Source: Candidatus Hydrogenedentota bacterium (GTDB lineage: Bacteria > Hydrogenedentota > Hydrogenedentia > Hydrogenedentales > SLHB01). Taken from it: a stretch of DNA of 64,000 nt. The notes below the pieces were generated by a model. That model was not told the DNA's origin. It worked only from the letters and a program-made list of their open reading frames with translations, and did no database searches. Each line of letters starts with the position of its first letter. Positions within the stretch are counted from its first letter, which is position 1. The position numbers and the translations under genes are program-made. This document shows, one piece after another, positions 28,543 to 42,807 of the stretch. The stretch covers positions 736,001-800,000 of the forward strand of contig CAXXTH010000010.1 of the NCBI GenBank assembly GCA_963668025.2, in the 5' to 3' direction.

Positions 28543-30436
28543 GTGTGCCAAGCATGGCGCGGATCTAAGGGGTGTAAGTCCCCTGCAAGCCCTGATGGTG
28601 GGAATTGCTAGCCAAGAGCAAGGGCGTCGCCGCGAGGCGGGGTCTGGAGGAAGCAGGAGGCAAAAGTCGGACTCGACGCACAGAAACCGGATAGAAGGCC
28701 GGGGTGGCGGGGCAAGCCAGCAATGGATGGCGACGCCCAATAACCATTCGGACACACACCTTGGTAAATCCGGCGAGGCCCGGCGGAAAGAGGCGCGTCT
28801 TACCTTGGGAGACCTGTTCATCTGTCTGGAAGAGCCAGACTAGCGGGATGGCAACATGTCGCGAGGGGTGGGCAGGAGTCAGCCGAGGCCATAATACCCG
28901 CAAGGGGAAGGGCCGAATCGATCATTCAAGGAGCAGCATTGAACGTCTCGTGGGATAGGGAGCGGCAGGAAGTAGCAGGTTGCCAGATGGAGTTCCCACT
29001 GGAGTCGGCTTGCCACGGCGCAATCGGAGAAGGCGGAACCGAATCGGATGCGTTCGAGGCGCGGCAACTATTTCCGGCGGCGAACAAGAGGCGAGCCTTG
29101 ACGCAAGACTTGATGGAACGGGTCGCGAGTCTTGCGAACCTGACGGAAGCGGTACGCCGGGTGCAACGGAACAAAGGCGCGGCGGGTGCGGACGTCATGA
29201 GCGTACGCGACCTGAAGCGTTGGTTTCCGGAACACTGGCGGGGACTGCAAGAGGAACTGACGGCAGGGCGCTACCGTCCCCAACCGGTGTTGGGAGTGCA
29301 AATCCCCAAGCCGGGCGGGGGGATGCGGCAACTGGGCATTCCGACGGTGGTGGACCGAGTCGTGCAACAAGCGCTCTTGCAGGCTCTCGAACCGCTTCTA
29401 GACCCGGCCTTCTCGGAAAGCAGTTATGGATTTCGTCCAAGGCACAATGCACATCAGGCGCTGCGGCAAGCCAGCACGTACGTAAGCGAAGGCCGCTGCA
29501 TTGTTGTGGACATGGACCTGGAAAAATTCTTCGACCGGGTCAACCACGACATCCTGATGGCGCGCGTGGCGCGGCACGTGTCAGACAAACGCGTACTCCG
29601 ACTCATCCGCTGGTTTCTTGAAGTGGGCATGATGCAGAACGGCGTATGCATCGAACGATACGAAGGGACCCCGCAAGGCGGTCCTCTATCGCCGCTGCTG
29701 GCCAACCTGCTCTTGGACGACCTGGACAAGGAGTTGGAGAAACGAGGGCATCGTTTTTGCCGCTATGCGGACGACTGCAACATTTACGTGCAGACGATAC
29801 GCGCGGGAGAACGTGTCCTGACATCGGTCACGCAGTTCCTTGAGGGGAAGCTGAAACTACGGGTGAACCGCGAGAAGAGCGCGGTGGCGTTCGTGGGAGA
29901 GCGGAAATTTTTGGGTTATCGCTTGCTGGGTGGGGGGCGATTGGGCATCGCGCCCAAGAGCCTCGACCGGGCGAAAGACCGCATCCGCGACATCACGCGA
30001 CGCAACCGCGGCGACGCCAAAGTGCGCCAGATGATTGAGGAGCTCAACAGCTTCCTGAGCGGCTGGATAACCTACTATCGGTTTGCCGAAGCAAAGGGCC
30101 ATCTGGAACGCCTCGGGGAATGGATGCGGCGCAAACTGCGCTGCGTCATCCTCAAACGCCTCAAGCGCACGAAAACCATAGCGGACTTCCTTAGAAAACT
30201 AGGCGTGCCGCAATTTCAGGCGTGGATACTCGCAGGGTCCGGGAAGGGCTGGTGGCGCAAAGCGGGGAGTCCTCCCGCGCAACACGCCATGGACAAACAA
30301 TGGTTCGCGAAACAAAAACTGATAGACCCGGTTCAACGGTACGAAACGTTCAAAAATGACCGAAACCGCCGTGGTACCGAGCAGGTATGCCCGGTGGTGT
30401 GAGAGGGGGGGACCGTGAGGAACCCCCCTACTCGAT
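28543..30436 (+). mobile_element. Group IIC intron
   Basis: 5' GTGTG a few nt after a stem-loop; short class C domain V (ACCGCCGTG...CCGGTGGT) and domain VI ending CTACTCGAT. Confidence 0.9.
28939..30402 (+). CDS. ltrA: Group II intron reverse transcriptase/maturase, no endonuclease domain
   Basis: RQLGIPTVVDR, GTPQGGPLSP, RYADD, domain X; exact start uncertain. Confidence 0.95.
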   Translation: MNVSWDRERQEVAGCQMEFPLESACHGAIGEGGTESDAFEARQLFPAANKRRALTQDLMERVASLANLTEAVRRVQRNKGAAGADVMSVRDLKRWFPEHWRGLQEELTAGRYRPQPVLGVQIPKPGGGMRQLGIPTVVDRVVQQALLQALEPLLDPAFSESSYGFRPRHNAHQALRQASTYVSEGRCIVVDMDLEKFFDRVNHDILMARVARHVSDKRVLRLIRWFLEVGMMQNGVCIERYEGTPQGGPLSPLLANLLLDDLDKELEKRGHRFCRYADDCNIYVQTIRAGERVLTSVTQFLEGKLKLRVNREKSAVAFVGERKFLGYRLLGGGRLGIAPKSLDRAKDRIRDITRRNRGDAKVRQMIEELNSFLSGWITYYRFAEAKGHLERLGEWMRRKLRCVILKRLKRTKTIADFLRKLGVPQFQAWILAGSGKGWWRKAGSPPAQHAMDKQWFAKQKLIDPVQRYETFKNDRNRRGTEQVCPVV

Positions 30437-30439
30437 TAA

Positions 30440-30485
30440 TGGTGAACTGGATGGGATTCGAACCCATGACCACCGGATTAAAAGT
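30440..30485 (-). repeat. att site: displaced 3' part of tRNA-Lys
   Basis: 46-bp direct repeat of 42732..42777 with one mismatch. Confidence 0.93.
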
Positions 30486-30728
30486 TCTATATTACAGATA
30501 TCTTATTAATAAGCCAGGACAAGAATTCACAATAAAAATAAGGCGTTTATCAATATTCATTGTCCTTCCTTTTAGTCATTCACCCCCTTTTTTTAATCCT
30601 ACTTGCCACTACATTGTCACCTAAAGATGAAATATTATTTATAAAATATTCGTAATACTGTTTTCGTTATTGAAGAAAATACTAATAGTGAGAATATACT
30701 CACTCAATTTTATACAGCCTAGCGATGT

Positions 30729-30850
30729 TTGCGATCTTGCGATGATAATTCATAAAGCACTGCTATATCAATACTTATAGCTTTCTTACTTTTTGCGATC
30801 TGCTTGCGATGGGTTGCGATGGGTTGCGAAGGGTTGCGAAGGGTTGCGAT
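30729..30850 (+). repeat. Iteron array, putative replication origin
   Basis: Eight TTGCGA copies including four tandem GGGTTGCGAW 10-mers; adjacent AT-rich tract; downstream of the replicase gene. Confidence 0.75.
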
Positions 30851-30914
30851 GAAATAAAAAAAACACTTCCCGTCCATGGAGGGGAAATGTTTCATGTTTA
30901 TATTTTGGGATGGG

Positions 30915-32981
30915 TCAGTTTAACAGCGCCACCCGCTTTGTGTTTGGATCATAATCCACGTATCCATGAGATTTGAGCATTAAAAGCGCCTTGACAACGA
31001 TCTCTTGCTTGCGGATACCATTAGGTCCATTCCTATGTATATAGCTTGTGGATACCGCGCCGTCCTGCTTCCGTAGCCATTCCAAAAGCCTATTAGCCAT
31101 GTGCGCTTCCTCATCGTTTTGTGAAACACTGCGCAAACGTTGCGCCTCATTCAAATACCACTTCGTGAGGATGATCCCATTTTGCATAGCGGGGAGAGAT
31201 ATTTCTTGGGCACTAAAATCCTCGATAGTTTGCAGTACACACGCGATACGCGCCGCTTGTTGTGCGGCTTTTCTAAGTGTTGAATCCACGTCTGCATATG
31301 TGTTGGCTTTGATACTTTCACGTACAAAAGAGTCAAACGCCCGCCATGCCCGCAACGCATCCGGGGACAGCCTCATCTCTTGTGGCGCAAGGTGTCTAGG
31401 GTCGCTGTTTGTTTTGAAAGGCATATTCAGCAACCGGGAGATTGCATCATAATACTTGATCATGCGCATATCTTTGTGCGGATCTTTATCCACGTGTTCG
31501 GGGGGAATCATTGGTTCCGGCCATGAAATCAAGAACCGCGATAGTAGCCCTATGCCTTCCGCCATTGGATTTCCAATAAGCGCAGGTGCTATGCAGGGCT
31601 GAATCATGATATGGGCGGCAAGCCGTCTGCCTTCTATTGACAACGAGCCATCGCCCTTCCGGCATTGCGTGATGGGATCGCCATCCCAGTATTTATTAAT
31701 CACGCCGAATGTGCGAGTAACGTTGTCTTTGTTGAATGCCAAGCCACCTAAAAGCAGTGCGCCTTCATCTGCGAATAATCCAAGACTTGGGCGGCCTTCC
31801 AGGAACAAACGGTTTAATCCTTCGATGGTTGGCTCTCCCACCGTCAAAAGATAATGCTGCGGTTCCTCTGGCTTGGTCAGGGCTTCTATGCGCCGGTTCT
31901 GTGCTTCTTGAGAGAGTTTCCCGTCCTTCAATATTCTGTCGCTCTGCGCCTTATACACGGCTTGGGCGATATGGAATTTTCGCATCTCTTCGGTATATGC
32001 CTGCTTACATTTCCGTTCATATTCCCGGTGTGGCTGCAACGCCATTTTATCGCATGAAGTTTTGCGAGAGCCGGAACTGCCGATAGTCAGCGCGTACAAA
32101 CTGATCGGATAGCATTGCACGGAATCAATCCGTACATCCCTGTGGGGTTGCACTGCAAGGCCTCCCGCGCTTAGCAGTGTATTCCCGGCCATGGATGAAG
32201 GAACGCCTAGCACTTCCGTGATGAACGCATGCGCACCCGCCAGCGTCGGCATGAGAGCCTCTACAGGGAAGGGGGCCTGTTTGTCATCGCACAACAGGGG
32301 CACCGGCTCAACACGGGGCACCTGGATGGCCTCAATGGCCACGCTATTGCTTTCGGACAACTCTTTTAGTAGCGCCGCCAGCGGTTCAGGGTCAGGTACC
32401 GGGCCGAATTCATCCCACTGGGGGCGTTGCGCCTTTACCCAATCGCATATGTCACCCTTGGGGGGCAGTTCCGGCAAACGGCATACAACCACTTCGGGGG
32501 AGGGATCAAGCTTACTGAGACACGCGGCCACGGCTTGGGCGTATTGCTCTCCGGGTTCATCGTTATCGGGAAGAATGATCACCCCGGACATATTCCGCAA
32601 TGGCTTCCAATCGGCCTTGGATGCCGCCTGTGCGCCGCCTAAAGAACATACAGCAGATAGACCCATACCGCACAATGCCGCAACACACTTCTCGCCTTCC
32701 GCCACATAGACGGGGCCGGTATCGAACACAAGAATTGATTCACGTCCAAACAATGGGTGTGGTTCAATTGCGCCCGCCGCCCATGCGTTGCCATTGCGTT
32801 TAAAAAATGGCAGGGTCACCTTGGATCCATCGGGGAGATCGTAACGCGCCACATACCCGATGATATTCTTGTTTTCGTCTCGATAGGTCCAGAGATGGCG
32901 GAATATCCCGCCTTTATAAGCGGTCGATATTCCGGGTGGCATTAATTGGATGGGAGCCGTTGCGCTCATGCACACCCCCAT
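30915..32981 (-). CDS. Toprim primase fused to DUF3987/YfjI-like helicase
   Basis: VAEGEKC and LPDNDEPG (Toprim); GSSGSRKTS Walker A, ADEG Walker B, GLLSRFL. Confidence 0.88.
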   Translation of the reverse strand: MGVCMSATAPIQLMPPGISTAYKGGIFRHLWTYRDENKNIIGYVARYDLPDGSKVTLPFFKRNGNAWAAGAIEPHPLFGRESILVFDTGPVYVAEGEKCVAALCGMGLSAVCSLGGAQAASKADWKPLRNMSGVIILPDNDEPGEQYAQAVAACLSKLDPSPEVVVCRLPELPPKGDICDWVKAQRPQWDEFGPVPDPEPLAALLKELSESNSVAIEAIQVPRVEPVPLLCDDKQAPFPVEALMPTLAGAHAFITEVLGVPSSMAGNTLLSAGGLAVQPHRDVRIDSVQCYPISLYALTIGSSGSRKTSCDKMALQPHREYERKCKQAYTEEMRKFHIAQAVYKAQSDRILKDGKLSQEAQNRRIEALTKPEEPQHYLLTVGEPTIEGLNRLFLEGRPSLGLFADEGALLLGGLAFNKDNVTRTFGVINKYWDGDPITQCRKGDGSLSIEGRRLAAHIMIQPCIAPALIGNPMAEGIGLLSRFLISWPEPMIPPEHVDKDPHKDMRMIKYYDAISRLLNMPFKTNSDPRHLAPQEMRLSPDALRAWRAFDSFVRESIKANTYADVDSTLRKAAQQAARIACVLQTIEDFSAQEISLPAMQNGIILTKWYLNEAQRLRSVSQNDEEAHMANRLLEWLRKQDGAVSTSYIHRNGPNGIRKQEIVVKALLMLKSHGYVDYDPNTKRVALLN

Positions 32982-33283
32982 TCCGCCGCCAAGTTATCGA
33001 GTGCGGCGCGAAAGCCAAGATCATACCTCGCTTGCTGAAACGCGATTATGTCTTGGCCACGCACACCACATGCGAAGCACTTATATGCACCCGTTTCCAG
33101 ATTCGCGGAAAAACTGGAAACGTGATCTTCGTGGAAGGGGCAAAGCCCCGAAGCGTAACGGCCTCGGGGCTTGTACCTCTGAATGGCGTTTGAATAGAAA
33201 TCGCGTGGATCAATTTGCTTGACACGATCACGGAGAGATGGTATAGTTTTCATACGGAATTTCCTTAATGTTTTTGCGCCCAT
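32966..33283 (-). CDS. CHC2 zinc-finger primase domain protein
   Basis: LCPFHEDHVSSF...YKCFACG. Confidence 0.9.
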   Translation of the reverse strand: MGAKTLRKFRMKTIPSLRDRVKQIDPRDFYSNAIQRYKPRGRYASGLCPFHEDHVSSFSANLETGAYKCFACGVRGQDIIAFQQARYDLGFRAALDNLAAEWGCA

Positions 33284-33292
33284 AACGCTCGG

Positions 33293-33511
33293 TCAAGCGT
33301 TGTGGGCGTCGCCATTTTCATTGATCCATTGCTGAAACGCACCTTCATGAATAAGCACTCTCTTTCCAATTTTGCGAATAACCTTGTCTCGGAAGCCGTC
33401 GATGTTCCGAAAAATGAGATGCCGTAGACCGCTCTCACTTGGCCAAGGATTATTCCGCGCCCATTCGCGCACCGTAAACAGCCGATTGCTTTGTAAACCT
33501 GTGTATTCCAT
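33293..33511 (-). CDS. AlpA/excisionase-like DNA-binding protein
   Basis: LFTVREWA...SGLRHLIF...RKIGKRVLIHEGAFQQWI winged-helix pattern. Confidence 0.75.
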   Translation of the reverse strand: MEYTGLQSNRLFTVREWARNNPWPSESGLRHLIFRNIDGFRDKVIRKIGKRVLIHEGAFQQWINENGDAHNA

Positions 33512-33580
33512 GTCACCATCCTTCACTAGTGGGGATTAATCCCCGTTCCAAAAAAATGGGCACAATGCCCAATCACACAC

Positions 33581-33609
33581 AGCTTAAACTATTCTATTAC
33601 TATTGTCAA
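33581..33609 (-). promoter_or_regulatory. Sigma70-like promoter of the replication operon
   Basis: TTGACA-17 bp-TAAGCT on the minus strand. Confidence 0.6.
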
Positions 33610-33636
33610 GTCCTGCTAAACAGGATAACGCTAGAC

Positions 33637-33891
33637 CTATTTGAACATCGCCTCGATCTGCCGCTGGGTCGCTTTTTCGCGCCGAAGCCGTAAAAGTTGC
33701 TCGTGCTGCTGTTCATCCCACGTGGGGGGAGCATCCTGATATTCGGCAAATCGCTCCTGGAGCCGGTCAATCGCATCGAGCATGGCCTTTAGGTGTCCCA
33801 AGCGTTTGTTCTGGGGAAGTTTTGACATATTCTCGCCGTGCGCAATAACGGCCTCGATTGCCAGCTTTAGATTGTATTTAACCTCGATCAT
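33637..33891 (-). CDS. Small helical hypothetical protein
   Basis: GAGG RBS, 84 aa, last gene of the structural operon. Confidence 0.6.
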   Translation of the reverse strand: MIEVKYNLKLAIEAVIAHGENMSKLPQNKRLGHLKAMLDAIDRLQERFAEYQDAPPTWDEQQHEQLLRLRREKATQRQIEAMFK

Positions 33892-33898
33892 AGTTACC

Positions 33899-34372
33899 TC
33901 ACTTGTCGGGCCTGCTGCCCGATTTGTCCATCGTTTCTTTGAAAGTCTTGAAGGCAACTTTTGCCAGTATCTCTAAATCGCTATCGCTCGCTTTGAGTGC
34001 TTCTTCCCGCAAATTCGGCATATTTGCTCGTCTGCTTAGATTCCATGCGCGGGGTGAAGGCATGCGCACTTCCAGGCGATTAGGAGATACCTTGATAACA
34101 TACTGGGACATCGTGTTCTCTTTAGATTCACCTGTATATGTAAGCGGATTTGAATGGCCGAACCTGCGGAACTTTCGCGCCTGGTATTTCGCCGTCCGTG
34201 GTTGATATCCATATTCTTGCGCGCCCTGAGTTGTGAAGTGTTTTGGGAATAGCTTTTCACGCCAAAATTCCGCAACGGACAGATTGGCTTTTTGCCGCGC
34301 CTCTTTTGCGGCATTGGCCATGCCCCGGGGCGTTTTACCTGGAAAAATAAGAGTAGGTTTGATTCGGATCAT
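33899..34372 (-). CDS. Phage virion morphogenesis / tail-completion-like protein
   Basis: Basic 157 aa; YQPRTAKYQARKFRRFGHSNPLTYTG resembles the Mu gpG / P2 gpS motif. Confidence 0.55.
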   Translation of the reverse strand: MIRIKPTLIFPGKTPRGMANAAKEARQKANLSVAEFWREKLFPKHFTTQGAQEYGYQPRTAKYQARKFRRFGHSNPLTYTGESKENTMSQYVIKVSPNRLEVRMPSPRAWNLSRRANMPNLREEALKASDSDLEILAKVAFKTFKETMDKSGSRPDK

Positions 34373-35872
34373 TTATTCACCTCCCATGAGCGCTTGGCCA
34401 CGGTCGGGGCGGGTGCTGGGTCGTTGATTCCTAAAAGTTCGCGTTTGCTCTTTGGTGGCTTCGGTCAATTTGTCGAGCCGGTCAGTGATCGCTTTCACAT
34501 CTTGACTATCCAGCTTCGCATTAATTGATTCCTTCACGGCATATTGCGCTAAGCTCGCAGCCGGATGCTTCCATTTTTCTACTTCACCGTAAATACTTCC
34601 AGCCGCCTGTAAGTAATGGCCTTCCTGGAATTGTTCACTTGCACGCGATAATGCACGCATAGATCGGCGCATGCCGTACCAAGGAATTCCTTCATCTGTC
34701 GTCAACCCGCCTAGTCCGGCTTCCTCCATCTGCAAGCCTGCTTGCTGATTTTCTAGCGCCATCTGTTGGCTTTCGTATGCGCGCCGTCCGGTCATGCGCC
34801 GCGCCGCCGCCGCCGCCCGCATTTCGGCTGTTTGCTGCTGCCTCTGTAACTCCGGGAATTGCGCTTGCTTCGATAACATTAGATCCCGGGCGTATCCAGC
34901 GGGCTTTTGCGCCGCCGCTTGTTGGGCGAAGAAATCTGCGTTCTGCTCAAGCCATCCAAGCGCTTGGCCTGTCTCTTTTGCCTCAATTCCGTATCGTTTA
35001 TATTGCGTCCAGTCGGCAGCATCAGCGCCCATTACCTGCTTGATGCCAAGCGCCATTTGCGGTTCTGATACCTCTGCCGCCGAATTTTTCCCATACATTT
35101 TTGCGACTTGCAAAGTGAGTGGGGAGTCTTGCCTTAGTCCTTTTGATATATTACTAACCACGGTAGGTAATTGATCACGCGGGGCCGATCTCGATGCGGC
35201 AGAAGCGGCAGCCAAGCCGATATCCAGGCTCGAAAAACCGCCAGCTTGCGGCATGACTCGGGCGATATCCGAAACTTCAAGATCAGATGCTTGGGCGTGA
35301 AAAGCCGTCAAATCTGTGGTTTGTTGCGGAGTTAGTCCACGCGCCGTTCCGCTCAAAATCGCCGTTTCTGAATCTTCCGTTTTGGCCCCGAACTGATTTA
35401 GAAGCATCATCTGATTGGCCATCACTCGGGCCTTTTGTTCATCGCCCTGCATGCGGGATAGCGCCCTCGCCCATATCTCTGTACTATCAGCGGCAGAGAC
35501 GCCATAACGCGCGCCGTGCATGGTGGACTCTGCCATAATTCTAGGATTGTCAGACACCATCATTAAGCCGGTCGATTTCTCGATCAGGGAATTGACAGCG
35601 GTTCCAGACCGCTGGGCCATTTCCTCAAATGCGCGTAATGCGCCTGTGGCAGCATCAATGCCGGTCTTCACGGAGAGCACGCCCCCGGCCATTTTTATAA
35701 GGTCGGATGTACCCTTGCCTGCGAAATCAAGACCCCTACCGGCGCGCCCTCCACTGCGTTCTACGCCATCCAAGGACTTAACAAGGCCTTCGATTTTTTT
35801 GGTGAATGAGACAACATCTTGCACAGCCTTGGCCGTGTCAGCGTCCATCTTATAGATTAAGTCAGAAGGCAT
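34373..35872 (-). CDS. Short tape-measure-like protein
   Basis: 499 aa, Ala/Gly/Gln-rich helical; TMP-like N-terminus (LIYKMDADTAKA) and C-terminus (RLDKLTEAT). Confidence 0.55.
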   Translation of the reverse strand: MPSDLIYKMDADTAKAVQDVVSFTKKIEGLVKSLDGVERSGGRAGRGLDFAGKGTSDLIKMAGGVLSVKTGIDAATGALRAFEEMAQRSGTAVNSLIEKSTGLMMVSDNPRIMAESTMHGARYGVSAADSTEIWARALSRMQGDEQKARVMANQMMLLNQFGAKTEDSETAILSGTARGLTPQQTTDLTAFHAQASDLEVSDIARVMPQAGGFSSLDIGLAAASAASRSAPRDQLPTVVSNISKGLRQDSPLTLQVAKMYGKNSAAEVSEPQMALGIKQVMGADAADWTQYKRYGIEAKETGQALGWLEQNADFFAQQAAAQKPAGYARDLMLSKQAQFPELQRQQQTAEMRAAAAARRMTGRRAYESQQMALENQQAGLQMEEAGLGGLTTDEGIPWYGMRRSMRALSRASEQFQEGHYLQAAGSIYGEVEKWKHPAASLAQYAVKESINAKLDSQDVKAITDRLDKLTEATKEQTRTFRNQRPSTRPDRGQALMGGE

Positions 35873-35892
35873 ATATTTCTCCGTTGCTTAGT

Positions 35893-35927
35893 TGGGGTGG
35901 CGGCGGAAGTGCACACCGCCACCCCTA
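35893..35927 (-). terminator. Hairpin downstream of the capsid gene
   Basis: GGGGTGGCGG...CCGCCACCCC. Confidence 0.55.
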
Positions 35928-35991
35928 AAATGGCGCTCGCCGCCAAACGAGCGCCGGTTATCCGTGAGGCGAGTCACGGCAAGGAGCCTGG

Positions 35992-37941
35992 TTACGAAGC
36001 GCCGGTGCATTTTCGAGAGCAGCGCCAATCAGTCATACTAAGGCCTACGTCTAAACGCACATCCCAGCCAATGCCCCATTCCCCCCTATCGAGCGAGAAG
36101 GTGCGTAGCGCCGGGATTTCATCACCGCCAGCGAGATGCACAATCTCGATAGACGGGGAGTTTTGTGTGCTAAACAGGTAATACGCGGTGTTGCTACCAG
36201 AATGAGTTACGCCGGTTCGGGGATCAACCACGCCATCAGCGCTCAGGCGCTCTTCGGAAATAATATCCAGTCCCAGCACATTAAGTGGGTTGCCCGCGCC
36301 ATCGCCGCTATCCTCGAAACGTTGCGAACTCGAAACGATTTTCGCGGCCAAGAAATACAGCGCGGAAGGAACCACAAGCGTCTTGGCCCGCAAGCCTAAA
36401 ACCGTTTGGCCTACACGCGTGCTTTGCAGCGCCGCGATCTGTGCTTCAAGAGCCGTTGCAGATAGCGCCGTGCCTGTCGTTCCAAGGTTGTTGTGATCGC
36501 CATGGAAGAAGGCCGTACCGTCCGCCGCGTTTGCGTTTGCTAGTATAGCGGACCACACAAAATCAAGTTTGCTTCGCATGCACGCCGCGCCCATTCGATA
36601 GGGTGCATCCGTGATCGCGCCCATATGATCGGCTGCAAGCGTTTCAATGCCTACCTGAAACATCTGCGCAAACGAGTAAACCCGATACGTCTCGGATTCA
36701 TCTGCAAAGTACGTATGGTGCGCTTGGCCACCCGGCGCAAGCTGATTGGCCGTCAAACTCGGACCGTATTTAACACGTTTTTGTGTTTCAAAATCTGGGG
36801 CAGTGATTCGCGGAAGGAACCGGGTGGTGTCTTCGCTTTCCGCCAAACCTTTCAGTAGGGACATACGAACGGAGCCGCTCAAAATATCGCTAAACGTTAG
36901 CGTGCTTTCCGCGCGTGTCAGCACTTCGCGCACAGCGCGTTCTCTGGAGCCGGGTACGCGCAAGCCCGCCGCCCTTAGAACTTCCTTCGCTATATCGCTG
37001 TAGGTTAAGCCGCGCTGCCCCTGCGTTTTTTCTAGCGCCGCCTTCCACTGCGATTGCTCTTCATACGGAAGCATGGACAACGCCCGCGCGCCGTCAAATG
37101 TCTCGGGGAGCAATTGAGCGGAACGATGAACTGCCGGATTCATCTGGAAGCCGAATTGCAGATCAATACCCGCCGGGCCTTGCGGATACAGCTTGGCGTC
37201 GATTGCATCCAGGATTGCCGCGCGCACCTGGTTTTCATCCATCTCGCCAGACAGCGCCCGCGTGCGTAGCTCCTGGTTCACGCCATCGGGATACTTATCG
37301 AGCACCTTCCGGATCGCCAATTCGACTTTTGGGTCAAGGGTGCGTTCTTCGAGTACAGTAGTCGTTTGTTCTTCAGGCATAGGTTTCAATCCTTCTGCGC
37401 ATGAGCGCGTTTTTGCATTTCGGTCCGCGCCTATCGCGGTACAACTCAATTCCTTCAATTCCCATTTCGTAGACACACGTAATGGCATGTTCTCAGGGGC
37501 AGTATATGAGCGGCCATTGACGATCTCGGTCTCGCCCGCCTTAATGTCTCGCTTGTCCAAAATGCGATAGCCAACAGACACATCACGTGCATGGCCATCG
37601 CGGTATTTTTCGTAGACGGGTTGCGCATCCGCTGCAAAGTAAATCCGACCAACCATGCGGCCACCGTCAATATGGATGTCTTCCACATGGCCTAAAACGT
37701 CATGGATGCTTGAGCGGCTGTGGCTATCGCACACTGGCAAATACTCGGGGAGATCCGCGCCGTGCATATCCAGGACTTCGGTGTAGGGATCCCAGCCGCC
37801 CATTTCTACGGGGGAATCAGTAGCGAGAACGGCCTCCACTGAACGGGTGGCGTCGTCTGCGGTGCTGGGCGTGATGGTGAGAGAGCGGGTTGTTAGATCG
37901 TTACTCATCTCGCTCATGCCCATCCTTCTTACCTCGAACAA
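35992..37941 (-). CDS. Prohead protease / major capsid fusion protein
   Basis: N-terminal protease (DSH, DVSVGY, WELKELSCTAIGAD); C-terminal Mu gpT-like capsid (FFHGDHNNL, TLVVPSAL, VRLDVG...DWR); true start may be a few codons downstream. Confidence 0.88.
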   Translation of the reverse strand: MFEVRRMGMSEMSNDLTTRSLTITPSTADDATRSVEAVLATDSPVEMGGWDPYTEVLDMHGADLPEYLPVCDSHSRSSIHDVLGHVEDIHIDGGRMVGRIYFAADAQPVYEKYRDGHARDVSVGYRILDKRDIKAGETEIVNGRSYTAPENMPLRVSTKWELKELSCTAIGADRNAKTRSCAEGLKPMPEEQTTTVLEERTLDPKVELAIRKVLDKYPDGVNQELRTRALSGEMDENQVRAAILDAIDAKLYPQGPAGIDLQFGFQMNPAVHRSAQLLPETFDGARALSMLPYEEQSQWKAALEKTQGQRGLTYSDIAKEVLRAAGLRVPGSRERAVREVLTRAESTLTFSDILSGSVRMSLLKGLAESEDTTRFLPRITAPDFETQKRVKYGPSLTANQLAPGGQAHHTYFADESETYRVYSFAQMFQVGIETLAADHMGAITDAPYRMGAACMRSKLDFVWSAILANANAADGTAFFHGDHNNLGTTGTALSATALEAQIAALQSTRVGQTVLGLRAKTLVVPSALYFLAAKIVSSSQRFEDSGDGAGNPLNVLGLDIISEERLSADGVVDPRTGVTHSGSNTAYYLFSTQNSPSIEIVHLAGGDEIPALRTFSLDRGEWGIGWDVRLDVGLSMTDWRCSRKCTGAS

Positions 37942-38425
37942 AAGTATGGAGCACTTCTAGAATCGGAGAATCGGGCATGATCGTCAATATGTCCATCATC
38001 CATTCTTCCTCTTTGGTGGTAGCACAGAATTTGTGCCCAAAGCCCAGATGATGCCGAATGAGCGCGCCGCGTACTCGACCATATCCAAACACGCTTATCA
38101 TCGCGGCCAGCGGGGAAAGTCCATCATCCAGGGTCATTGTCAGCGCCTCCCATGGAGCGTTCACCCCAAATGAGGATATCGCCGCATCCGGCATTTCCCA
38201 CTGTTTATCCTTAACGAAGAGCGAACCTGCTACAACGGCTTGGAGTAGATCATTGAGCCGTTCACGTGTTTCTTTGTGGGGGATGGATGCACCACGCTCC
38301 AACGCGCCCCAAGCCACGCGGCTTATCCCCAACAGACCAGCGATCTCTGCCTGGGATAGCCTCAAGGCCTTTCGTGTCTTTTCAAGGTCCATGACAAATT
38401 CCTTAACTTTTTCCAAGCAGCCCAT
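37901..38425 (-). CDS. XRE-family HTH regulator with C-terminal extension
   Basis: RKALRLSQAEIAGLLGISRVAWGALERGASIP. Confidence 0.85.
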   Translation of the reverse strand: MGCLEKVKEFVMDLEKTRKALRLSQAEIAGLLGISRVAWGALERGASIPHKETRERLNDLLQAVVAGSLFVKDKQWEMPDAAISSFGVNAPWEALTMTLDDGLSPLAAMISVFGYGRVRGALIRHHLGFGHKFCATTKEEEWMMDILTIMPDSPILEVLHTFVRGKKDGHERDE

Positions 38426-38441
38426 CTGCTAGTATACTGAA

Positions 38442-38470
38442 ATTATACACGAAAGATAAGTACTTGTCAA
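38442..38470 (-). promoter_or_regulatory. Perfect-consensus sigma70 promoter of the xre-capsid operon
   Basis: TTGACA-17 bp-TATAAT with extended TG. Confidence 0.85.
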
Positions 38471-38700
38471 GTGGTATTCGTCAATCCTAAAATAATGATG
38501 AATTCGGGGTGTAGCACCTTCATTTCCTTCGCCGCCTGCGCCATAGCCTCACCTCGGAAGTCGTTAGGTTCCTCGTCCGAGCGAGGAACCTTTGCGCCTT
38601 TCCCGTAATGTTCGCCGGACTCTTTCTGTCGCTCCTTCGCCGCAGGCTTGTACATCTCGGATAGCTTAGCGGCTGAAAAAGGGGTGTCAGTGTCCACCAA
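38467..38700 (-). pseudogene. Probable fragment of a phage ParB/methylase-associated HTH protein
   Basis: YKPAAKERQKESG...EAMAQAAKEMKV resembles a linker plus the start of a helix-turn-helix, then truncates. Confidence 0.35.
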
Positions 38701-39078
38701 AAATCCCTAGGAGGCCTGAAAACGCTCAAAACCTGTCCTAGGGGGCATGTTTCGGGCTGATTTGCCCTCCTAGAACTTTATGGAATTTCACATTATGAGT
38801 AGGTTAAAATGGGCATGGGTTAATATGATATATGAATAAAAGCCTGTAAAAGCCCTAATTGCAGTAGTTTAGGGGTGTCAATGTGCTATAGGTGGGTCGA
38901 TGCCCGGCCCGCCCTTGTCCTTTGGTGTATCACAGGACCCGTACACTGGTACGGCATTTCGGCCTTCCAGAATGCCCCCAGAGCGACGATCTCCCGCAAG
39001 GCTGTATCATCTATCATGCTATCCCTCGCCCTGTGTCGGCCAGCGTGGTGCGGTGCTGGGTCACTGCCGAATGAGACA

Positions 39079-39312
39079 CTAAACGCCTGCTTCAAGAAGC
39101 GATACCACACCACTTCCATGGACGGAATTGTATAAGGACTCGATATACTCGATGATGGATTCCCTGGAAAGATAGATGCGTCGCCCGCGTTTGTAGCCTT
39201 TGATTTTTCGCAACTCAAATAATTCAACCCAGTGTTTCCATGAGTGCCGGAACTCTGCCACTGCCTCATTAGGTGTAATGTCATGGCGGACGATTTCCTT
39301 ATCCATAATCAT
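39079..39312 (-). CDS. Excisionase-like HTH protein
   Basis: ITPNEAVA...KIKGYKRGRRIYLSRESIIEYI; RBS AGGAG. Confidence 0.75.
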   Translation of the reverse strand: MIMDKEIVRHDITPNEAVAEFRHSWKHWVELFELRKIKGYKRGRRIYLSRESIIEYIESLYNSVHGSGVVSLLEAGV

Positions 39313-39368
39313 CTCTCCTTTTTTTTATGGCGGGCCAGCACACGCCAGCCCGCTGCCACTCATTTCTA

Positions 39369-39659
39369 TTATTCGGCCAGGCTCACCGCCAAATATTGCC
39401 AGTCTTTAGGCTTAAAGCTGTGCGAAAAATCCAATGTGCTAAATTCGAGTTCATCATTGTTCAAATTGGCTTCAATGTGGATCTGATTGTCGACAGTGAC
39501 ATAAATCTCCCCACTCTCAACAGAATCACATGTGAATCGTTCCGGTGCGATTCCAAACCGTATACCGGCCAGATAGCGCGCCTTGGCTCTGAGGAATTCG
39601 ATCATTAGAACGGAAAGGCTTTCGAGAGATTTGGCTTGTTCGATAATTTGCATAGACAT
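39369..39659 (-). CDS. Hypothetical protein
   Basis: 96 aa, co-oriented with the other element genes. Confidence 0.55.
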   Translation of the reverse strand: MSMQIIEQAKSLESLSVLMIEFLRAKARYLAGIRFGIAPERFTCDSVESGEIYVTVDNQIHIEANLNNDELEFSTLDFSHSFKPKDWQYLAVSLAE

Positions 39660-39804
39660 GGTGGGAATTCCTTACGGAGGCGATATAATTCTACGGACGG
39701 CGGAGCCTTCGTATCCGCTGCTCGCATCGGCCTTCAGGTGTTCGAGCACCTGGGGGCCTTTTTATGCTCACCGGCCACAATGCCGTATGATGCCTCAAAA
39801 AACT

Positions 39805-40033
39805 TTAGCAGCTTTAGCAAACGTTAGCAAATCGCAAAAAGTCATAAGCCTTTCAGTGACATATACTTACAACAAATTTTAGCAAATTAGAAACTTTAGC
39901 AGGGTCCGTTTTTTCGCCCCTCCGTCGCAACGCTGTCGCAACCGTCGCAACCACGTCGCAAATTTACTATCTATGTAAACCTAATGACACCAATTACTTA
40001 TCATCTTCTGTCGCAGTGTCGCAACTGTCGCAA
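39805..40033 (+). repeat. Second repeat array (TTAGCA x5; TCGCAA x7)
   Basis: Short repeats at roughly 9-11 bp spacing, downstream of and overlapping the integrase 3' end. Confidence 0.7.
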
Positions 40034-40386
40034 GGGTTTGTATTTCCAGGTAACGAAATACTCATTTTTAGCATTGCTTGCTTAATATCATTCTGGAATA
40101 AATGGGAATACCGCATGGTCATGGCCAGGGATGTATGGCCAAGCACCGCGCCGATCTGTTGGAGGGTCATTCCCGAACTTGCCATCAGACTTGCAGCGGT
40201 ATGCCTAAGATCGTGAATTCTACAATCTTGAATATTCGCCCGCCTTATCGCCCACAACCATGCATGGCGGTATGTTTGATATGATCCCGGAAAGATTTTG
40301 CCCTCTTGTCCATCTTGGGCACGCTTACTCAATACTTCCATAGCGAGATCTATAAGTGGAACATCACGCCCACGATTAGATTTTTC

Positions 40387-41914
40387 GTAACACTTTAGCC
40401 GACTGAAGTGTTTTCCGGTGGCAGGGGAGGCAATTGGCCGGTGTTGAGGTAGTGGACCAGGGCGTTGCAGACGGTGCAGACGGGGTTTTGCCCGCGTTTT
40501 TTCAAAGTAAAGAAGACGCTCATGAGCACCGCTTGTATGGCGGCTCCTTGGTCGCTGCGGTTGCAGTAACTGTTTTTGCGCAGGATAACGGCAGGACGGA
40601 TGGAGCGTTCCGCCAAGTTGTTGTCGAAGGGAACATCTGATTGGCCGAGAAAAGTGAAGAGTTCATCCTGGTGTCGGCGCAGCCTTTTTATGAGGCGCTT
40701 GGCGTTGGCGTCCTCCCAGGGCGTATCGCACAAGTCCCGCAAGCGCCGGGCGAAGCGCGCGCGGCGCGAGTCGTACGCCTCCGGTTCGAGCTCGCCGCGC
40801 CGCCGCCACAGCCGGATGGCGTCGGCAATCAGGCGGCGCAGCTTTTTGGCGAAGGCGGGCCAGGCCGGGCTGGGCGATTTGTATTTCTCCACGTGCTCGA
40901 GTTCGCGCAACAAATGCACGAGGCACTTCTGCCGGGCGGCGCACGCCACGGCGTTGTACGCGGCCCAGAAGTCGGCCACCAGCGTTCCGGCGAATTCCCG
41001 CGTGAAGAACTGCTGGAGCGCCGGACTCCCCCGCGAATGGTCGATCAGGAAAAAGCTCAGCCCTTTGGTGGCGAAACACCACAGCCATCGGGTCTTGCCA
41101 TTCACGCGCCAGCCGGTCTCGTCGGCGTTGAGCACCGCCGAGTCCAGCGCTTCCTGGTGAATGGCCTCGTACCAAGGCAGGAGAATCTCCGCCAGCCTGC
41201 GCCACATGTGCAGCAGCCCGCCCGGCGTGACCTGGAAAAGCAGGTGGAAATCGAAGACCTCCACGATTTGCGAAAGCGTGTTGCCCAACACATAGTGCAG
41301 CCACGCGCTGAGGACCAGCACCCGGTTGCCCAGGGTCGCGCCCGGCAAGGCCGCCGCCACAACCGGCTCGACTTTCTTCTTGCATCGCGGACACCAGTCG
41401 CGGTGAATGGTATGCTCGGTGATTTCCGGACGGATGCCTTCGGGTATGTCTTCGGTGTAGCGCGTGCGGGTCTCCGCGCGGCGGTCCAGCGGCCCGCCGC
41501 AGTCGGGACACACCTTGGTGCGGTGTGTTTCACGCCGGTCGATACGTTCGGGCGGCACGCGCCGGCTGCCGGGGTGGCCCATCTTGCGTCCCGGCTTTTT
41601 CTTGCCGCGCACAGGCGTCTGGGGTTTCCCGTAAACTGGCTGCATGCCCGAAGGGGTGGAGGGCGTTTGGTGGGAAGTGAACGCCGCCTCGGCCTGCTGC
41701 TCCGACAGCAGCTTGGATTGCGCCAACAGGGCAAACACCACGGCATCTTCGCCCAATGCGTAGATCGCTCGGGCTTGCTCCTCCGAGAGCAGCGGTCCCA
41801 ATGGAATGCCACTTATTGCCGTCGCCATGGCGTCTTGGCCCAAAACCACAACATCTTGTAACTATATTATACCGAAACGCTACTTATAGTTGCGCCAGAC
41901 GGCTAAAGTGTTAC
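40387..41914 (-). mobile_element. Single-ORF IS66 family element (ISBst12-like)
   Basis: IR GTAACACTTTAGCCG / CGGCTAAAGTGTTAC; 8-bp target duplication GATTTTTC. Confidence 0.95.
40395..41849 (-). CDS. IS66 transposase
   Basis: CPDCG zinc finger, ADETGW, QKCLVHLLR, DNNLAERSIRP. Confidence 0.95.
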   Translation of the reverse strand: MVLGQDAMATAISGIPLGPLLSEEQARAIYALGEDAVVFALLAQSKLLSEQQAEAAFTSHQTPSTPSGMQPVYGKPQTPVRGKKKPGRKMGHPGSRRVPPERIDRRETHRTKVCPDCGGPLDRRAETRTRYTEDIPEGIRPEITEHTIHRDWCPRCKKKVEPVVAAALPGATLGNRVLVLSAWLHYVLGNTLSQIVEVFDFHLLFQVTPGGLLHMWRRLAEILLPWYEAIHQEALDSAVLNADETGWRVNGKTRWLWCFATKGLSFFLIDHSRGSPALQQFFTREFAGTLVADFWAAYNAVACAARQKCLVHLLRELEHVEKYKSPSPAWPAFAKKLRRLIADAIRLWRRRGELEPEAYDSRRARFARRLRDLCDTPWEDANAKRLIKRLRRHQDELFTFLGQSDVPFDNNLAERSIRPAVILRKNSYCNRSDQGAAIQAVLMSVFFTLKKRGQNPVCTVCNALVHYLNTGQLPPLPPENTSVG

Positions 41915-42731
41915 GATTTTTCCAATTCCGGGGGAATGGTTAGTATCCTCTGTTCTAAATTAATACGTTCCCATGTAAGTGTTATCAATTCCCCAAAACG
42001 GCAACCCGTAGAGACCGCCATGAGAATGAGATCCTCTAGGTTTTTGTTTTGCGATTCATGGCAAGCAACCCGTAAACGCTCCAGTTCATCTTGACTGAGA
42101 TATCTCCGCCGTCCTGGGTTCGGGCTTGGCTTTGAGACGTTATGCATGGGATTTGATTCTATGAGACCCCATTCCTTTGATGCCGTGGTAAAAACATGGG
42201 ATAGGGTTTGCAGGTATTGTCTTATCGTGGTGGGGGAGAAATCGCGGCCTTGCCTGTTCGTACCGTTTTGCAATTCTGTTCTGCAAGCAACAATATCAGA
42301 TGGACGCACAGAGCTGATTGTCATATGCCCTATTCGGGCTTGCCACCACCTAAGGTGCAGTTCTTGGGTCAATAGGACCGAAGGGCGTTTCATGTTTAAA
42401 ACTTCACGAATATACCGCTCAATGGCTTCAGACATTGTTGAAGCATGCACTTCAGCGCGGACTTCTCCGCTTATAATTTCTTGCTCTTTGGCGCGTGCCC
42501 AGTCTTTTGCATCCGTTAAGCGTCGAAATTGTTTGGAGCAACTGTGCCCATGCATGCGCACCCTAGCAAGGAAGCGTTTCTGCCCCTTTTTGGTTACGCG
42601 CTCTTCAAAATTGGCCATAAAAATAAACCCCGCTTTTTGTTAGTGTCACTTGCGTGCCACTTGGCTTATTGAAGCCCAAAAAGCGGGATTTGTCAAGACC
42701 ATGTAAGTCATTGACTTACAAGTATTTAAAT

Positions 42732-42807
42732 TGGTGAACGGGATGGGATTCGAACCCATGACCACCGGATTAAAAGTCCGATGCTCTACCAACTGAGCTA
42801 CCCGTCC
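42732..42807 (-). tRNA. trnK: tRNA-Lys (anticodon UUU)
   Basis: GGACGGGTAGCTCAGTTGGTAGAGCATCGGACTTTTAATCCGGTGGTCATGGGTTCGAATCCCATCCCGTTCACCA, 76 nt cloverleaf. Confidence 0.97.

Follow-up and report, generated by a model that had tools for sequence, protein, structure and literature searches.

The 64,000-nt stretch of Candidatus Hydrogenedentota DNA analysed here (the window) carries a 12.3-kb island at a tRNA-Lys gene, and on balance we favour the reading that this island is a phage satellite that has become immobilised and whose genes supply a capsid shell of its own and make the tail interior chimeric. This reading builds on the gene content and boundaries of the island, on protein identities drawn from fold and gene position, and on the recurrence of mini-islands bearing a tape-measure protein (TMP) gene, all of which were observed here. 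The att repeat at a tRNA gene, the integrase, the excisionase-like gene, the lower GC content, the primase module and the iterons speak for a satellite, whereas the single copy, the broken integrase and the fact that neither a syntenic relative nor a helper was found speak against it. Such a gene set, with a capsid shell, a TMP and a plausible tail-completion protein and without portal, terminase or connector, is undescribed in the literature that we found.

Boundaries and replication module of the island

The island is bounded by a 51-nt direct repeat (30440–30490 and 42732–42782, 94% identity). The proximal repeat is formed by the 3′-terminal 46–51 nt of a tRNA-Lys(UUU) gene (42732–42807, minus strand), and the distal one (30440–30490), to which no strand is assigned, is a partial copy of that 3′ end. 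All genes lie on the minus strand, the length without the insertion sequence is about 10.8 kb, and the GC content is 0.42–0.56 within the island versus 0.57–0.62 in the left flank. The original prediction had described an att-bounded, one-strand element of about 10.8 kb net with int, xis, xre, a capsid fusion, a 499-aa gene, primase genes and iterons, and all of this was recovered; the splitting of int by an IS66-family element and a second cluster of iterons come in addition.

The integrase is divided into an N-terminal piece of 235 aa (41911–42618, minus strand; Phage_integrase, E = 1.6e-7, profile positions 2–58) and a C-terminal piece with the catalytic region (39994–40398, minus strand; Phage_integrase, E = 8.7e-14, profile positions 105–170), the latter comprising an ORF at 39994–40341 whose reading frame is open back to the end of the insertion sequence at 40398. 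This IS66-family element (40385–41916, minus strand) has one transposase ORF (40395–41849; DDE_Tnp_IS66, E = 2.8e-42, plus zf-IS66), 21-nt inverted ends (40385–40405 and 41896–41916) and an 8-bp flanking direct repeat. Because int is interrupted in this way, the island is probably stuck. It is present in a single copy in its genome. Three public runs, all contig sets of a single study, contain the locus, and none shows an excised or empty-site form; in the contigs of run X1, the depth of the IS66-family element is about 37 and that of the island about 4.8. IS elements and group II introns abound in the host genome. The excisionase-like HTH_17 protein of 77 aa (39079–39312, minus strand; PF12728, E = 8.4e-5) scores 23.2 bits, under the Pfam cut-off of 27 bits, and a 96-aa ORF (39369–39659, minus strand) has no family in Pfam or PHROG scans.

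The replication genes comprise a 688-aa primase-helicase with Toprim and DUF3987 domains (30915–32981, minus strand; PF13148, E = 1.4e-78; also Toprim_2, E = 1.5e-4, phrog_2373 and phrog_239), a 105-aa protein with a DnaG-type CHC2 zinc finger (32966–33283, minus strand; PF01807, E = 4.7e-14; primase PHROGs) and, ahead of them, a small DNA-binding protein of 77 aa (33293–33526, minus strand), weakly called AlpA/Xis-like from an HTH_17 match at E = 0.06 only. A promoter-like site (33619–33591) and a terminator-like site (33571–33557) stand just upstream of this last ORF. About nine copies of TTGCGA(T/A)G, four of which are spaced at 10 bp, form an iteron cluster (30719–30851, plus strand) that adjoins the primase gene as a putative origin; six of the 15 exact matches to TTGCGAYS in the whole window fall inside these 133 nt, the window-wide count itself being not above chance. 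The second cluster, with six to seven copies of TTGCGAC (39920–40035, minus strand), is inverted with respect to the first and overlaps the end of int. Two separated clusters of one motif are presumably comparable to ori and crr of P4.

Virion genes

The first gene of the structural operon encodes a 174-aa Xre-type HTH regulator (37901–38425, minus strand; HTH_31, E = 3e-7; RstR/DicA-like). Just upstream of it lies the promoter-like site TTGACA-17-TATAAT (38442–38470, minus strand), which matches the consensus at 12 of 12 positions and is the sole perfect match in the region, the total number of promoter-like sites being not above that in shuffled sequences. At the other end of the structural block a terminator-like site follows the small ORF, and the virion ORFs are intact and tightly packed.

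The largest of these (35992–37941, minus strand) encodes a 649-aa fusion of prohead protease, scaffold and major capsid protein (MCP), as indicated by phrog_4523 (E = 1e-77), by phrog_80 (protease) over residues 6–219, by PF25209 (Phage_capsid_4, E = 2e-27) over residues 340–640 and by NF045541 over residues 29–647, the last at E = 4e-82 but under the curated cut-off. In tblastn comparisons with phage records 116 of them match, all below 60% identity. No match at E ≤ 1e-10 was found in 132 other genomes of the class, and GTDB representatives, IMG/VR and JGI metagenomes hold relatives of at most 37% identity over most of the protein, with one 80-residue fragment that reaches 46%.

The 499-aa protein (34373–35872, minus strand) matches no Pfam, PHROG or NCBIfam family. 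Counting the query, its own family has 30 cluster representatives with E ≤ 0.001, and one of the 25 aligned members matches PhageMin_Tail (E = 0.0023). Its AF2 model (mean pLDDT 74.8, with residues ~110–360 above 90) gave 61 matches at E ≤ 0.001 in a Foldseek search of BFVD, and among the 50 listed every named one is a tape-measure or minor-tail protein; matches in the Atlas include PhageMin_Tail clusters. Homologues occupy the TMP position in the tail modules of four phage contexts (L006, L020, L021 and L027). Modelling and the position of relatives together support a predicted TMP fold, in agreement with the tape-measure-like gene that had been proposed. The helper with a longer TMP that had also been envisaged was not seen, most family members being about 450–560 aa long, like the window protein.

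The stop of the TMP gene abuts the start of an ORF for a tail-completion-like protein of 157 aa (33899–34372, minus strand). No Pfam, PHROG or NCBIfam family and no PDB Foldseek entry at E ≤ 0.001 matches this protein. Its AF2 model (pLDDT 70.6) gave a best E of 0.0098 in BFVD, with weak named matches to ‘tail completion’, ‘virion morphogenesis’ and ‘HK97 gp10’, and a VIA score of Z 4.2 to chain P of the SaPI1 neck entry 9mu2, which is inside the noise; Atlas leads point to viral clusters at 0.95–0.96, one of which has Phage_tail_S on 29% of its members. Homologues (23–36% identity) are located just upstream of a putative major tail protein in the same four phage contexts, and in mini-island L005 a homologue adjoins the TMP. 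The protein is thus plausibly a tail-completion protein, as originally suggested, on the weak evidence of gene position, BFVD matches and Atlas leads. A small ORF (33637–33957, minus strand) completes the block; it encodes 106 aa from a TTG start, or 84 aa from an alternative ATG located 8 nt past the stop of the 157-aa ORF, and has a weak match to phrog_5403 (E = 0.0045) and no family.

Missing genes, relatives and a possible helper

The original prediction had stated that terminase and portal are lacking, and this was borne out: neither genes nor pseudogene remnants for portal, terminase, tail tube or lysis were found in the island with Pfam, PHROG, NCBIfam and tblastn. When six phage-like loci were compared with the island by tblastn, with every ORF of 70 aa or more as a query, only the MCP, TMP and 157-aa genes were matched, and no fragment of a portal, terminase or tube appeared. 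No island ORF matched a portal, connector, terminase or HNH family (Pfam, PHROG, NCBIfam), nor did the portal-containing loci L010, L027, L006 and L020 reveal a portal or connector by tblastn. The distal tail and lysis genes of an intact temperate siphovirus prophage were likewise not found in the island, which spans only 12.3 kb. The island has no recognisable TerS, cos site or pac site, and a very divergent TerS may be among its three small family-less ORFs.

Where do the three virion genes come from? All of them have homologues, in a different order, in one siphovirus-like metagenome contig, L027. Besides a portal homologue, this contig encodes a protease-MCP fusion 36–42% identical to that of the island and a homologue of the 157-aa protein (31%), and a protein of 497 aa encoded there aligns with the profile of the TMP family (hhalign 95%, E = 4e-8). 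Since L027 holds a portal together with all three homologues, it represents a plausible helper lineage. The same contig lends weight to the main rival explanation, which we regard as rather unlikely, namely that the island is a rearranged remnant of an L027-type temperate siphovirus at tRNA-Lys in which several deletions and one rearrangement have done away with portal, terminase, connectors, tube, chaperones, distal tail and lysis genes, its surviving genes being not yet degraded. An integrase already hit by an IS, in a genome with many IS elements and group II introns, would suit such a decay, as would an element that is single-copy and for which no syntenic relatives were found: no element of the same synteny was detected elsewhere in genomes of the class, GTDB representatives, IMG/VR or JGI metagenomes. 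The host's own genome (93.75% complete) also yielded no helper prophage, with 0 matches to Pfam TerL_ATPase, Terminase_6N, Phage_portal, Phage_portal_2 and Phage_capsid, and tblastn with the prophage ORFs of relatives returned only the island's own genes.

The arrangement of the genes argues in the other direction. In all four phage contexts the 157-aa homologue is followed by a protein of ~300 aa, another of ~250–300 aa and then the TMP, with two further small ORFs ahead of the TMP in L020. The window order is MCP, TMP, 157-aa ORF, the reverse of all four with respect to the last two genes, and therefore deletions alone cannot yield it; at least three clean deletions plus a transposition would be needed, with both att sites kept. 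Moreover, the ORFs are intact and abutting, no pseudogene fragments are left, and the layout, with the replication module after the structural genes, is of the satellite type. The same reduced gene sets also occur in other genomes, and two further times in the host's own. Relatives of the 499-aa protein were found in seven of 135 genomes of the phylum, three times in phage tail modules and four times in mini-islands (the window included), and homologues are thus not confined to full prophages; such confinement is what the original prediction had named as speaking against a satellite. The other mini-islands are organised as TerS, 99 aa, 157-aa homologue, TMP and HTH_17 protein (L005); as primase, S49 head protease, 274 aa and TMP, with further genes after the primase and before the TMP (L018); and as TMP, 131 aa and integrase (L019).

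Proposed mode of particle formation

How might a satellite of this kind form particles? A tyrosine integrase would have inserted the element at the 3′ end of tRNA-Lys, and the IS66-family element would have split int afterwards. The element would have a P4/PICI-style replication module of its own (AlpA-like, CHC2, Toprim-DUF3987 and two inverted iteron clusters) and would express the protease-scaffold-MCP, TMP, tail-completion-like and small-ORF products as a single operon from the consensus promoter before xre. Upon infection by, or induction of, a siphovirus of the L027 lineage, the element would replicate, its own capsid shell, probably small, would assemble around the helper's portal, and the helper's terminase would fill this capsid. 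From the element would come the TMP and the tail-completion protein, to occupy the lumen and neck of the tail, and from the helper the tube, terminator, connectors, baseplate and fibres, resulting in chimeric virions. We infer each of these steps, as well as the identity of the helper. A capsid shell without a portal of its own is unusual, because scaffold and portal normally co-evolve, and the element poses the structural question of how a foreign protease-scaffold-MCP fusion assembles on a helper's portal. A cognate pair of TMP and tail-completion protein is mechanistically sensible in view of the SaPI1/80alpha neck, where tail-completion protein, TMP and DNA were resolved together inside the tail, their interaction being stated in the title of the report (PMC11661146).

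The same virion genes might instead act as a decoy, with the MCP fusion, TMP and tail-completion protein poisoning the assembly of an invading siphovirus and the island itself not being transduced, a role that we consider quite improbable. Blocking of tail assembly is described, in the accessible parts of the respective reports, for the Tai systems (PMC11364771) and for Rta of PLE11 (bioRxiv 10.1101/2025.01.29.635557), and both the strong consensus promoter predicted ahead of xre and the structural genes and the lack of a recognised packaging function (TerS, cos) would be compatible with it. However, interference does not need full-length, phage-sized structural proteins, the accessible text on PLEs presents their TMP as a structural part of the satellite virion, and int, xis, att and the replication module point to a self-mobilising element.

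Comparison with known satellites

P4-like satellites are defined by an integrase, an AlpA-type regulator and an alpha-type primase-helicase. The island resembles them in its tyrosine integrase at a tRNA gene, its (weakly called) AlpA-type regulator, its large primase-helicase and its size of ~11 kb. P4 itself is not known to encode structural proteins of capsid or tail, and Pfam, PHROG and NCBIfam scans of the island ORFs gave no homologue of Sid, Psu or Delta.

With cf-PICIs and the Streptomyces satellites MulchRoom and MiniFlayer, as described in the accessible part of PMC10690885, the island shares an HK97-fold capsid protein of its own with a maturation protease, the helper capsid not being remodelled, and a backbone of integrase plus AlpA/primase-type genes. 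The same text assigns a portal, terminase subunits, head-tail connectors and an HNH nuclease to cf-PICIs, and a portal, terminase subunits, a head-to-tail adapter and an HNH nuclease to the Streptomyces satellites, whereas in the window an MCP and a head maturation protease are present and portal, connectors, TerS, TerL and HNH were not found. It further describes whole helper tails for cf-PICIs and MulchRoom and a tail fibre for MiniFlayer (PMC10690885); the window island, in contrast, has two tail-interior genes.

The gene set had been predicted to fit no known satellite type, which holds for P4, PICIs and cf-PICIs and does not hold for reports of 2025, in which PLEs have TMPs and EPIPs have both MCP and TMP. 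To our knowledge, satellites were thought before 2025 to steal whole tails; PLEs and EPIPs are the first for which a tape measure of their own was shown or proposed, and with the 2025 preprints on them a satellite-encoded tape measure is no longer unprecedented. EPIPs of Mycolicibacterium aichiense have a small satellite genome with MCP, scaffold, TerS and TMP, and the genes listed in the accessible part of the report include neither portal nor large terminase (PMC12822802); the island is alike in combining MCP, scaffold and TMP in a small genome. Peculiar to EPIPs in that text are a serine integrase, TerS, a head-to-tail adaptor and a stopper, with no primase-helicase listed (PMC12822802). 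None of these four was detected in the island (Pfam, PHROG, NCBIfam). Its integrase is of the tyrosine type and sits at a tRNA gene, and it also has primase genes of P4-like type, an MCP fused to its protease and a tail-completion-like gene. EPIPs were, according to the same text, isolated as particles from an actinobacterium; the comparison with the window island is one of described gene content.

According to the accessible part of a preprint on Vibrio cholerae, every PLE has a TMP gene whose product is incorporated selectively into PLE virions, and unrelated satellites outside the Vibrionaceae have predicted tmp genes as well (bioRxiv 10.1101/2025.01.29.635557). The likeness lies in the satellite-encoded TMP, which in PLEs is reported there to replace that of the helper in chimeric tails and which in the window is recognised by fold and position. 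As the same text describes them, PLEs encode a tail-assembly chaperone and a baseplate hub alongside the TMP, have a serine recombinase and a myovirus helper, and steal the helper's coat protein, remodelled with TcaP, whereas the window island pairs its TMP with a tail-completion-like protein and has its own capsid gene; no tail-assembly chaperone, baseplate hub, serine recombinase or TcaP was detected in the island. The original idea of a satellite that builds its own head and alters tail assembly is in line with the TMP fold and with the absence of portal and terminase, and it loses its claim to be unprecedented and the support of a helper in the genome. If true, the satellite reading would add a third backbone, unrelated to the other two, on which a satellite supplies its own TMP: an island with P4-like primase genes at a tRNA gene, in a host phylum that differs from those of PLEs and EPIPs and is poorly sampled. 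It would also provide concrete protein families for screening other genomes and viromes.

Further islands in the same genome

Two other att-bounded islands of ~15 kb, with 48-nt repeats of 100% and 94% identity, are located at tRNA-Val genes of the same genome. Both carry an integrase, TerS (PF03592), a 934-aa PhageMin_Tail TMP and, after the TMP, a phrog_5 tail-completion gene; a primase is carried by one of the two. Their TMP and tail-completion proteins have no detectable relation to those of the window, so the pairing recurs independently. Together with the three TMP-bearing mini-islands of relatives, they suggest that TMP replacement is recurrent and not a curiosity.

Tentatively, and with more doubt than conviction, we propose that a portable ‘tail-lumen cassette’, made up of TMP and cognate tail-completion protein, is common to small integrative satellites of this lineage, and perhaps beyond it, and is modularly combined with other genes. 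Its partners might, just as tentatively, be an own capsid in the window, a head protease and scaffold in L018, and TerS in L005 and the tRNA-Val islands. If so, satellites in general would use the replacement of both proteins that contact the DNA end within the tail as a strategy different from the redirection of capsid size by which the classical ones are defined. Such tails could join and eject only with satellite heads, or could get past host defences and helper counter-measures directed at the TMP.

Might the three islands also complement one another on a shared helper, the window island giving capsid, TMP and tail-completion protein and the tRNA-Val islands giving TerS, TMP and tail-completion protein? 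The recognised gene sets are complementary within one genome, and the integrases are related, with 36–40% identity in the catalytic part. However, the unrelated TMP and tail-completion proteins suggest different helpers, and several unannotated ORFs of the tRNA-Val islands, in which no capsid gene was recognised, could include head genes; cooperation of this kind is pure conjecture and, in our view, highly improbable. Between the two tRNA-Val islands, the shared proteins that were scored are mostly 94–97% identical, with identity going down to 45% for a 154-aa ORF.

An att-bounded island with a compact virion-gene operon

The island is inserted at the tRNA-Lys(UUU) gene (42732-42807, minus strand), the sole tRNA gene in the window, and its distal end is marked by a 51-nt att repeat (30440-30490) that copies the last 46-51 nt of the tRNA gene with 94% identity. 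Between the two att copies GC content is 0.42-0.56, against 0.57-0.62 in the left flank, and every credible ORF of the island lies on the minus strand. Reading from the tRNA, the tyrosine integrase is found in two collinear pieces, the first at 41911-42618 (positions 2-58 of Pfam Phage_integrase) and the second at 39994-40398 (positions 105-170), both on the minus strand. Between them sits an IS66-family element (40385-41916) with 21-nt inverted ends (40385-40405 and 41896-41916), an 8-bp direct repeat on its flanks and a single minus-strand ORF for the transposase (40395-41849). The island is thus currently disabled by an insertion sequence.

The genes that follow, all on the minus strand, begin past a cluster of TTGCGAC repeats (~39920-40035). 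They are a 96-aa ORF, an excisionase-like HTH_17 protein (a sub-threshold match), a 77-aa ORF and an Xre-type regulator, upstream of which lies the only perfect TTGACA-17-TATAAT site of the region. Then come a 649-aa fusion of prohead protease, scaffold and major capsid protein (MCP; 35992-37941), a 499-aa ORF (34373-35872), a 157-aa ORF (33899-34372), whose start immediately follows the stop codon of the 499-aa ORF, and a small ORF followed by a terminator-like hairpin. The distal part carries a weakly called AlpA-like ORF, a CHC2 zinc finger and a 688-aa Toprim-DUF3987 primase-helicase, as well as about nine copies of TTGCGA(T/A)G (30719-30851), relative to which the TTGCGAC cluster is inverted. 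Matches of the primase among phage records were limited to Wolbachia WO and covered part of its length. ORF, family and repeat scans therefore bear out the gene inventory of the original prediction, from which the break in the integrase and the second, inverted iteron cluster had been absent.

The claim that the island has neither terminase nor portal also held in family scans and in a tblastn comparison. No island ORF matched a portal, terminase, connector, tail tube, chaperone, baseplate or lysis family in Pfam, PHROG or NCBIfam, and when every ORF of 70 aa or more in six phage-like loci was compared with the island by tblastn (E≤0.1), only the three intact virion genes were recovered and no fragments.

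Assignment of the two tail-interior proteins

The 499-aa protein matched no Pfam, PHROG or NCBIfam family, a word-index homologue search returned only itself and one 840-aa protein, and tblastn against 50,697 phage records gave no match. Among 1.84 billion cluster representatives, all searched with HMMER, 30 proteins matched at E≤0.001, the query included, most of them 450-560 aa long and the closest relative 35% identical. A three-row alignment retrieved no relative from metagenome and viral contigs. An AlphaFold2 model built with 25 family members (mean pLDDT 74.8) has a confident all-helical core at residues ~110-360. With this model, Foldseek found 61 matches in BFVD at E≤0.001, and among the best 50 of these all the named ones are tape-measure or minor-tail proteins. 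A features search of the ESM Atlas pointed in the same direction, and the family profile gave only coiled-coil noise against the PDB.

The 157-aa protein likewise matched no family in Pfam, PHROG or NCBIfam and found only itself in the word-index search; its family profile retrieved nothing from the PDB. Its model (pLDDT 70.6) had no Foldseek match in the PDB and only weak ones in BFVD (best E 0.0098), consistently named 'tail completion', 'virion morphogenesis' or 'HK97 gp10'. Atlas matches were viral clusters, one of them with Phage_tail_S on 29% of its members. A VIA search gave nothing at Z≥5; the SaPI1 neck entry 9mu2 ranked fourth with Z 4.2, a value inside the noise.

Gene position provides the stronger argument for both proteins. 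In three genomes of the same family or order (loci L006, L020 and L021) and in a metagenome contig (L027), the homologue of the 157-aa protein is followed by a ~300-aa protein conserved among the four loci, a ~250-300-aa protein, the homologue of the 499-aa protein and large distal-tail genes. Two more small ORFs precede the tape-measure gene in L020, and in L006 and L020 the portal, protease and MCP genes lie upstream of the tail module. Because of this position we accept both names: with good confidence, supported also by the fold, the 499-aa protein is a tape-measure protein (TMP), and with moderate confidence the 157-aa protein is a tail-completion protein. The pairing makes structural sense in the light of the SaPI1/80alpha neck, in which tail-completion protein, TMP and DNA are resolved together inside the tail and, according to the title of the study, interact (PMC11661146).

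Relatives of the virion genes and a candidate helper lineage

The TMP-family profile matched seven of 135 genomes of the phylum, including the genome that holds the window, with three phage-type tail modules and four small-island contexts, the island in the window counting among the latter. The other three island contexts lie on short contigs, to which the gene orders given here are confined. In L005 (G034:C94, 6694-9673, minus strand) a TerS fragment, a 99-aa ORF, the 157-aa homologue, a 513-aa TMP and a 183-aa HTH_17 protein follow one another; the contig ends inside TerS, and neither a tube nor a chaperone gene separates the tail-completion homologue from the TMP. L018, a 6.9-kb contig (G123:C385, 1032-6914, minus strand), carries a compact run of primase-helicase, three small ORFs, S49 head protease, 274-aa coiled-coil protein, two small ORFs and 498-aa TMP. 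It resembles a further island of satellite type, one in which head and tail-lumen genes are combined. L019 has a 192-aa ORF with a weak match to the protease end, a 560-aa TMP, a 131-aa ORF and an integrase.

The MCP fusion is unmatched at E≤1e-10 across the 132 other genomes of the class, and by sequence it had no match in the PDB. When GTDB representatives, IMG/VR and JGI metagenomes were scanned with patterns, they yielded only relatives at most 37% identical over most of the protein, together with one 80-residue fragment at 46% identity; the GTDB representatives contributed one distant, Planctomycetota-type match (L007). In the phage-like metagenome contig L027 (2-13212), a 724-aa protease-MCP fusion, 36-42% identical to that of the island, lies immediately downstream of a portal homologue. 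The contig also encodes a homologue of the 157-aa protein (31% identical), the conserved tail genes and, at the tape-measure position, a 497-aa protein that matches the TMP family profile (hhalign probability 95%, E 3.8e-8). The portal was called by its similarity to a 518-aa protein of locus L010, which matches solved portal proteins. No other sequence that we found brings together relatives of the island's three virion genes. One siphovirus lineage, that of L027, thus carries relatives of all three, and for this reason we regard it as a candidate helper lineage.

The most economical reading of these data is that the island is a phage satellite. An integrase at a tRNA, an excisionase, an AlpA-like regulator, a primase-helicase and iterons form a backbone typical of P4-like and PICI elements, and here that type of backbone is joined to a compact, intact virion-gene operon ordered unlike every phage context that we have seen. 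The main rival is that the island is what remains of a prophage similar to L027, which is favoured by the single copy, the broken integrase, a host genome rich in IS elements and introns, and the fact that no syntenic relatives were found. Such decay would however have required several clean deletions, and no gene fragments are left; a gene order reversed with respect to phages and the recurrence of similar reduced gene sets also speak against it.

Two further islands in the same genome

When the genome that holds the window was searched for Pfam PhageMin_Tail, two tape-measure genes, each encoding 934 aa, came up at other places on the same contig. They belong to two ~15-kb islands inserted at tRNA-Val(TAC) and tRNA-Val(GAC) and bounded by 48-nt repeats of the tRNA-Val 3' end, 100% identical in L025 (3183-18220; C10:643183-658220) and 94% identical in L026 (5174-19968; C10:1045174-1059968). 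Both encode an integrase, TerS (PF03592), two unannotated ORFs, the 934-aa TMP followed by a phrog_5 'tail completion or Neck1' gene, and IS elements; an HNH-like ORF and a primase-helicase are present in only one of them. The shared proteins that were scored are mostly 94-97% identical (down to 45% for a 154-aa ORF), which implies recent spread as ~15-kb units. The 934-aa TMP matches annotated siphovirus TMPs and has no match at E≤1e-20 in 134 other genomes of the phylum. Since neither it nor its tail-completion partner shows any detectable relation to its counterpart in the window, the arrangement of a TMP gene followed by a tail-completion gene in a small integrative element arose at least twice. 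L025 and L026 are candidate TMP-encoding satellites in their own right; as a smaller possibility, they and the island in the window may complement one another.

The primase-helicase of L018 is 41% identical to that of one tRNA-Val island. Another homologue of it, 51% identical, is encoded at C6:92949-93836, outside the three islands, and may mark a fourth primase-bearing island.

Comparison with known satellites and possible way of working

Capsid protein is encoded, together with portal and terminases, by cf-PICIs and by MulchRoom and MiniFlayer, two satellites of Streptomyces; cf-PICIs add maturation protease, head-tail connectors and HNH nuclease, and whole tails are taken from the helper by cf-PICIs and MulchRoom (PMC10690885). 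Marine VEIMEs encode no capsid genes (PMC9618062). According to a 2025 preprint (10.1101/2025.01.29.635557), all PLEs encode a TMP and a chaperone, a baseplate hub being shown in PLE11, PLE virions contain the PLE TMP and not that of the helper, and the Discussion mentions predicted tmp genes in unrelated satellites outside Vibrionaceae. EPIPs carry TerS, adaptor, stopper, serine integrase, scaffold, MCP and TMP genes, and theirs is the only preprint that came close in our search for satellites with capsid and TMP and without portal or terminase (PMC12822802). They are the closest analogue of the island in its presumed way of working. The island lies outside the cf-PICI, P4-like, PLE and EPIP families, because at least one defining feature of each was looked for and found to be missing. 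Its particular set is a P4-like primase backbone that bears a protease-MCP fusion of its own, a TMP and a tail-completion gene but neither TerS nor portal nor connectors. We found no description of this set in the papers that our literature searches brought up; Extended Data Fig. 8 of the PLE study, a list of satellites with tmp genes beyond Vibrionaceae, may include similar elements.

The original prediction of a new kind of satellite stands in part: the element is satellite-like, its capsid gene and tail-interior genes are real, and its function is putative. It has lost ground in novelty, since satellites described in 2025 carry their own TMP (10.1101/2025.01.29.635557 and PMC12822802). What sustains interest in the island is the recurrence of TMP-bearing mini-islands in this genome and its relatives, together with the candidate helper lineage.

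The functions missing from the island are exactly those that might come from a helper. Around the helper's portal the fusion protein would build a shell, probably of a small size that fits a genome of 11-12 kb, and the terminase of the helper would fill it. The TMP and tail-completion protein of the island would replace those of the helper in tails otherwise made by the latter. A smaller possibility is that the structural genes serve chiefly as decoys in assembly. Returning to the satellite reading, no resident helper is in view: in this genome, which is 93.75% complete, we found no TerL, portal or HK97-type capsid family and no homologue of the prophage genes of the relatives.

Junctions and mobile neighbours

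No empty att site can be demonstrated, because the flanking genes (26954-28486 and 43810-44679) share a contig in none of 53 other genomes of the family. The locus is present in three sequencing runs, all from one study and with no RNA run listed, and their contigs at the locus contain neither an excised circle nor an empty site. One joint, from 30437 to 35351, was discarded as unreliable (depth 2, with one side of 28 nt).

A group II intron occupies 28626-30436 on the plus strand, with domains D1-D4 at 28626-28913 and a sub-threshold match to D5-D6 at 30364-30436; its ORF for an RT/maturase spans 28939-30402. Since only 3 nt separate its end from the distal att repeat, it was inserted right at the chromosomal junction of the island. 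In one of the runs its contig depth is ~60, against ~4.8 for the island, so it must be multi-copy or common to other organisms. The usual layout of IS66-family elements comprises three ORFs; the copy in the integrase has one transposase ORF in ~1.5 kb, and its contig depth in the same run, about eight times that of the island, indicates many copies. In the left flank, a 510-aa ORF (26954-28486, plus strand) may itself be mobile: some related genomes have as many as three copies of it, and in none is it syntenic with the gene of the right flank.
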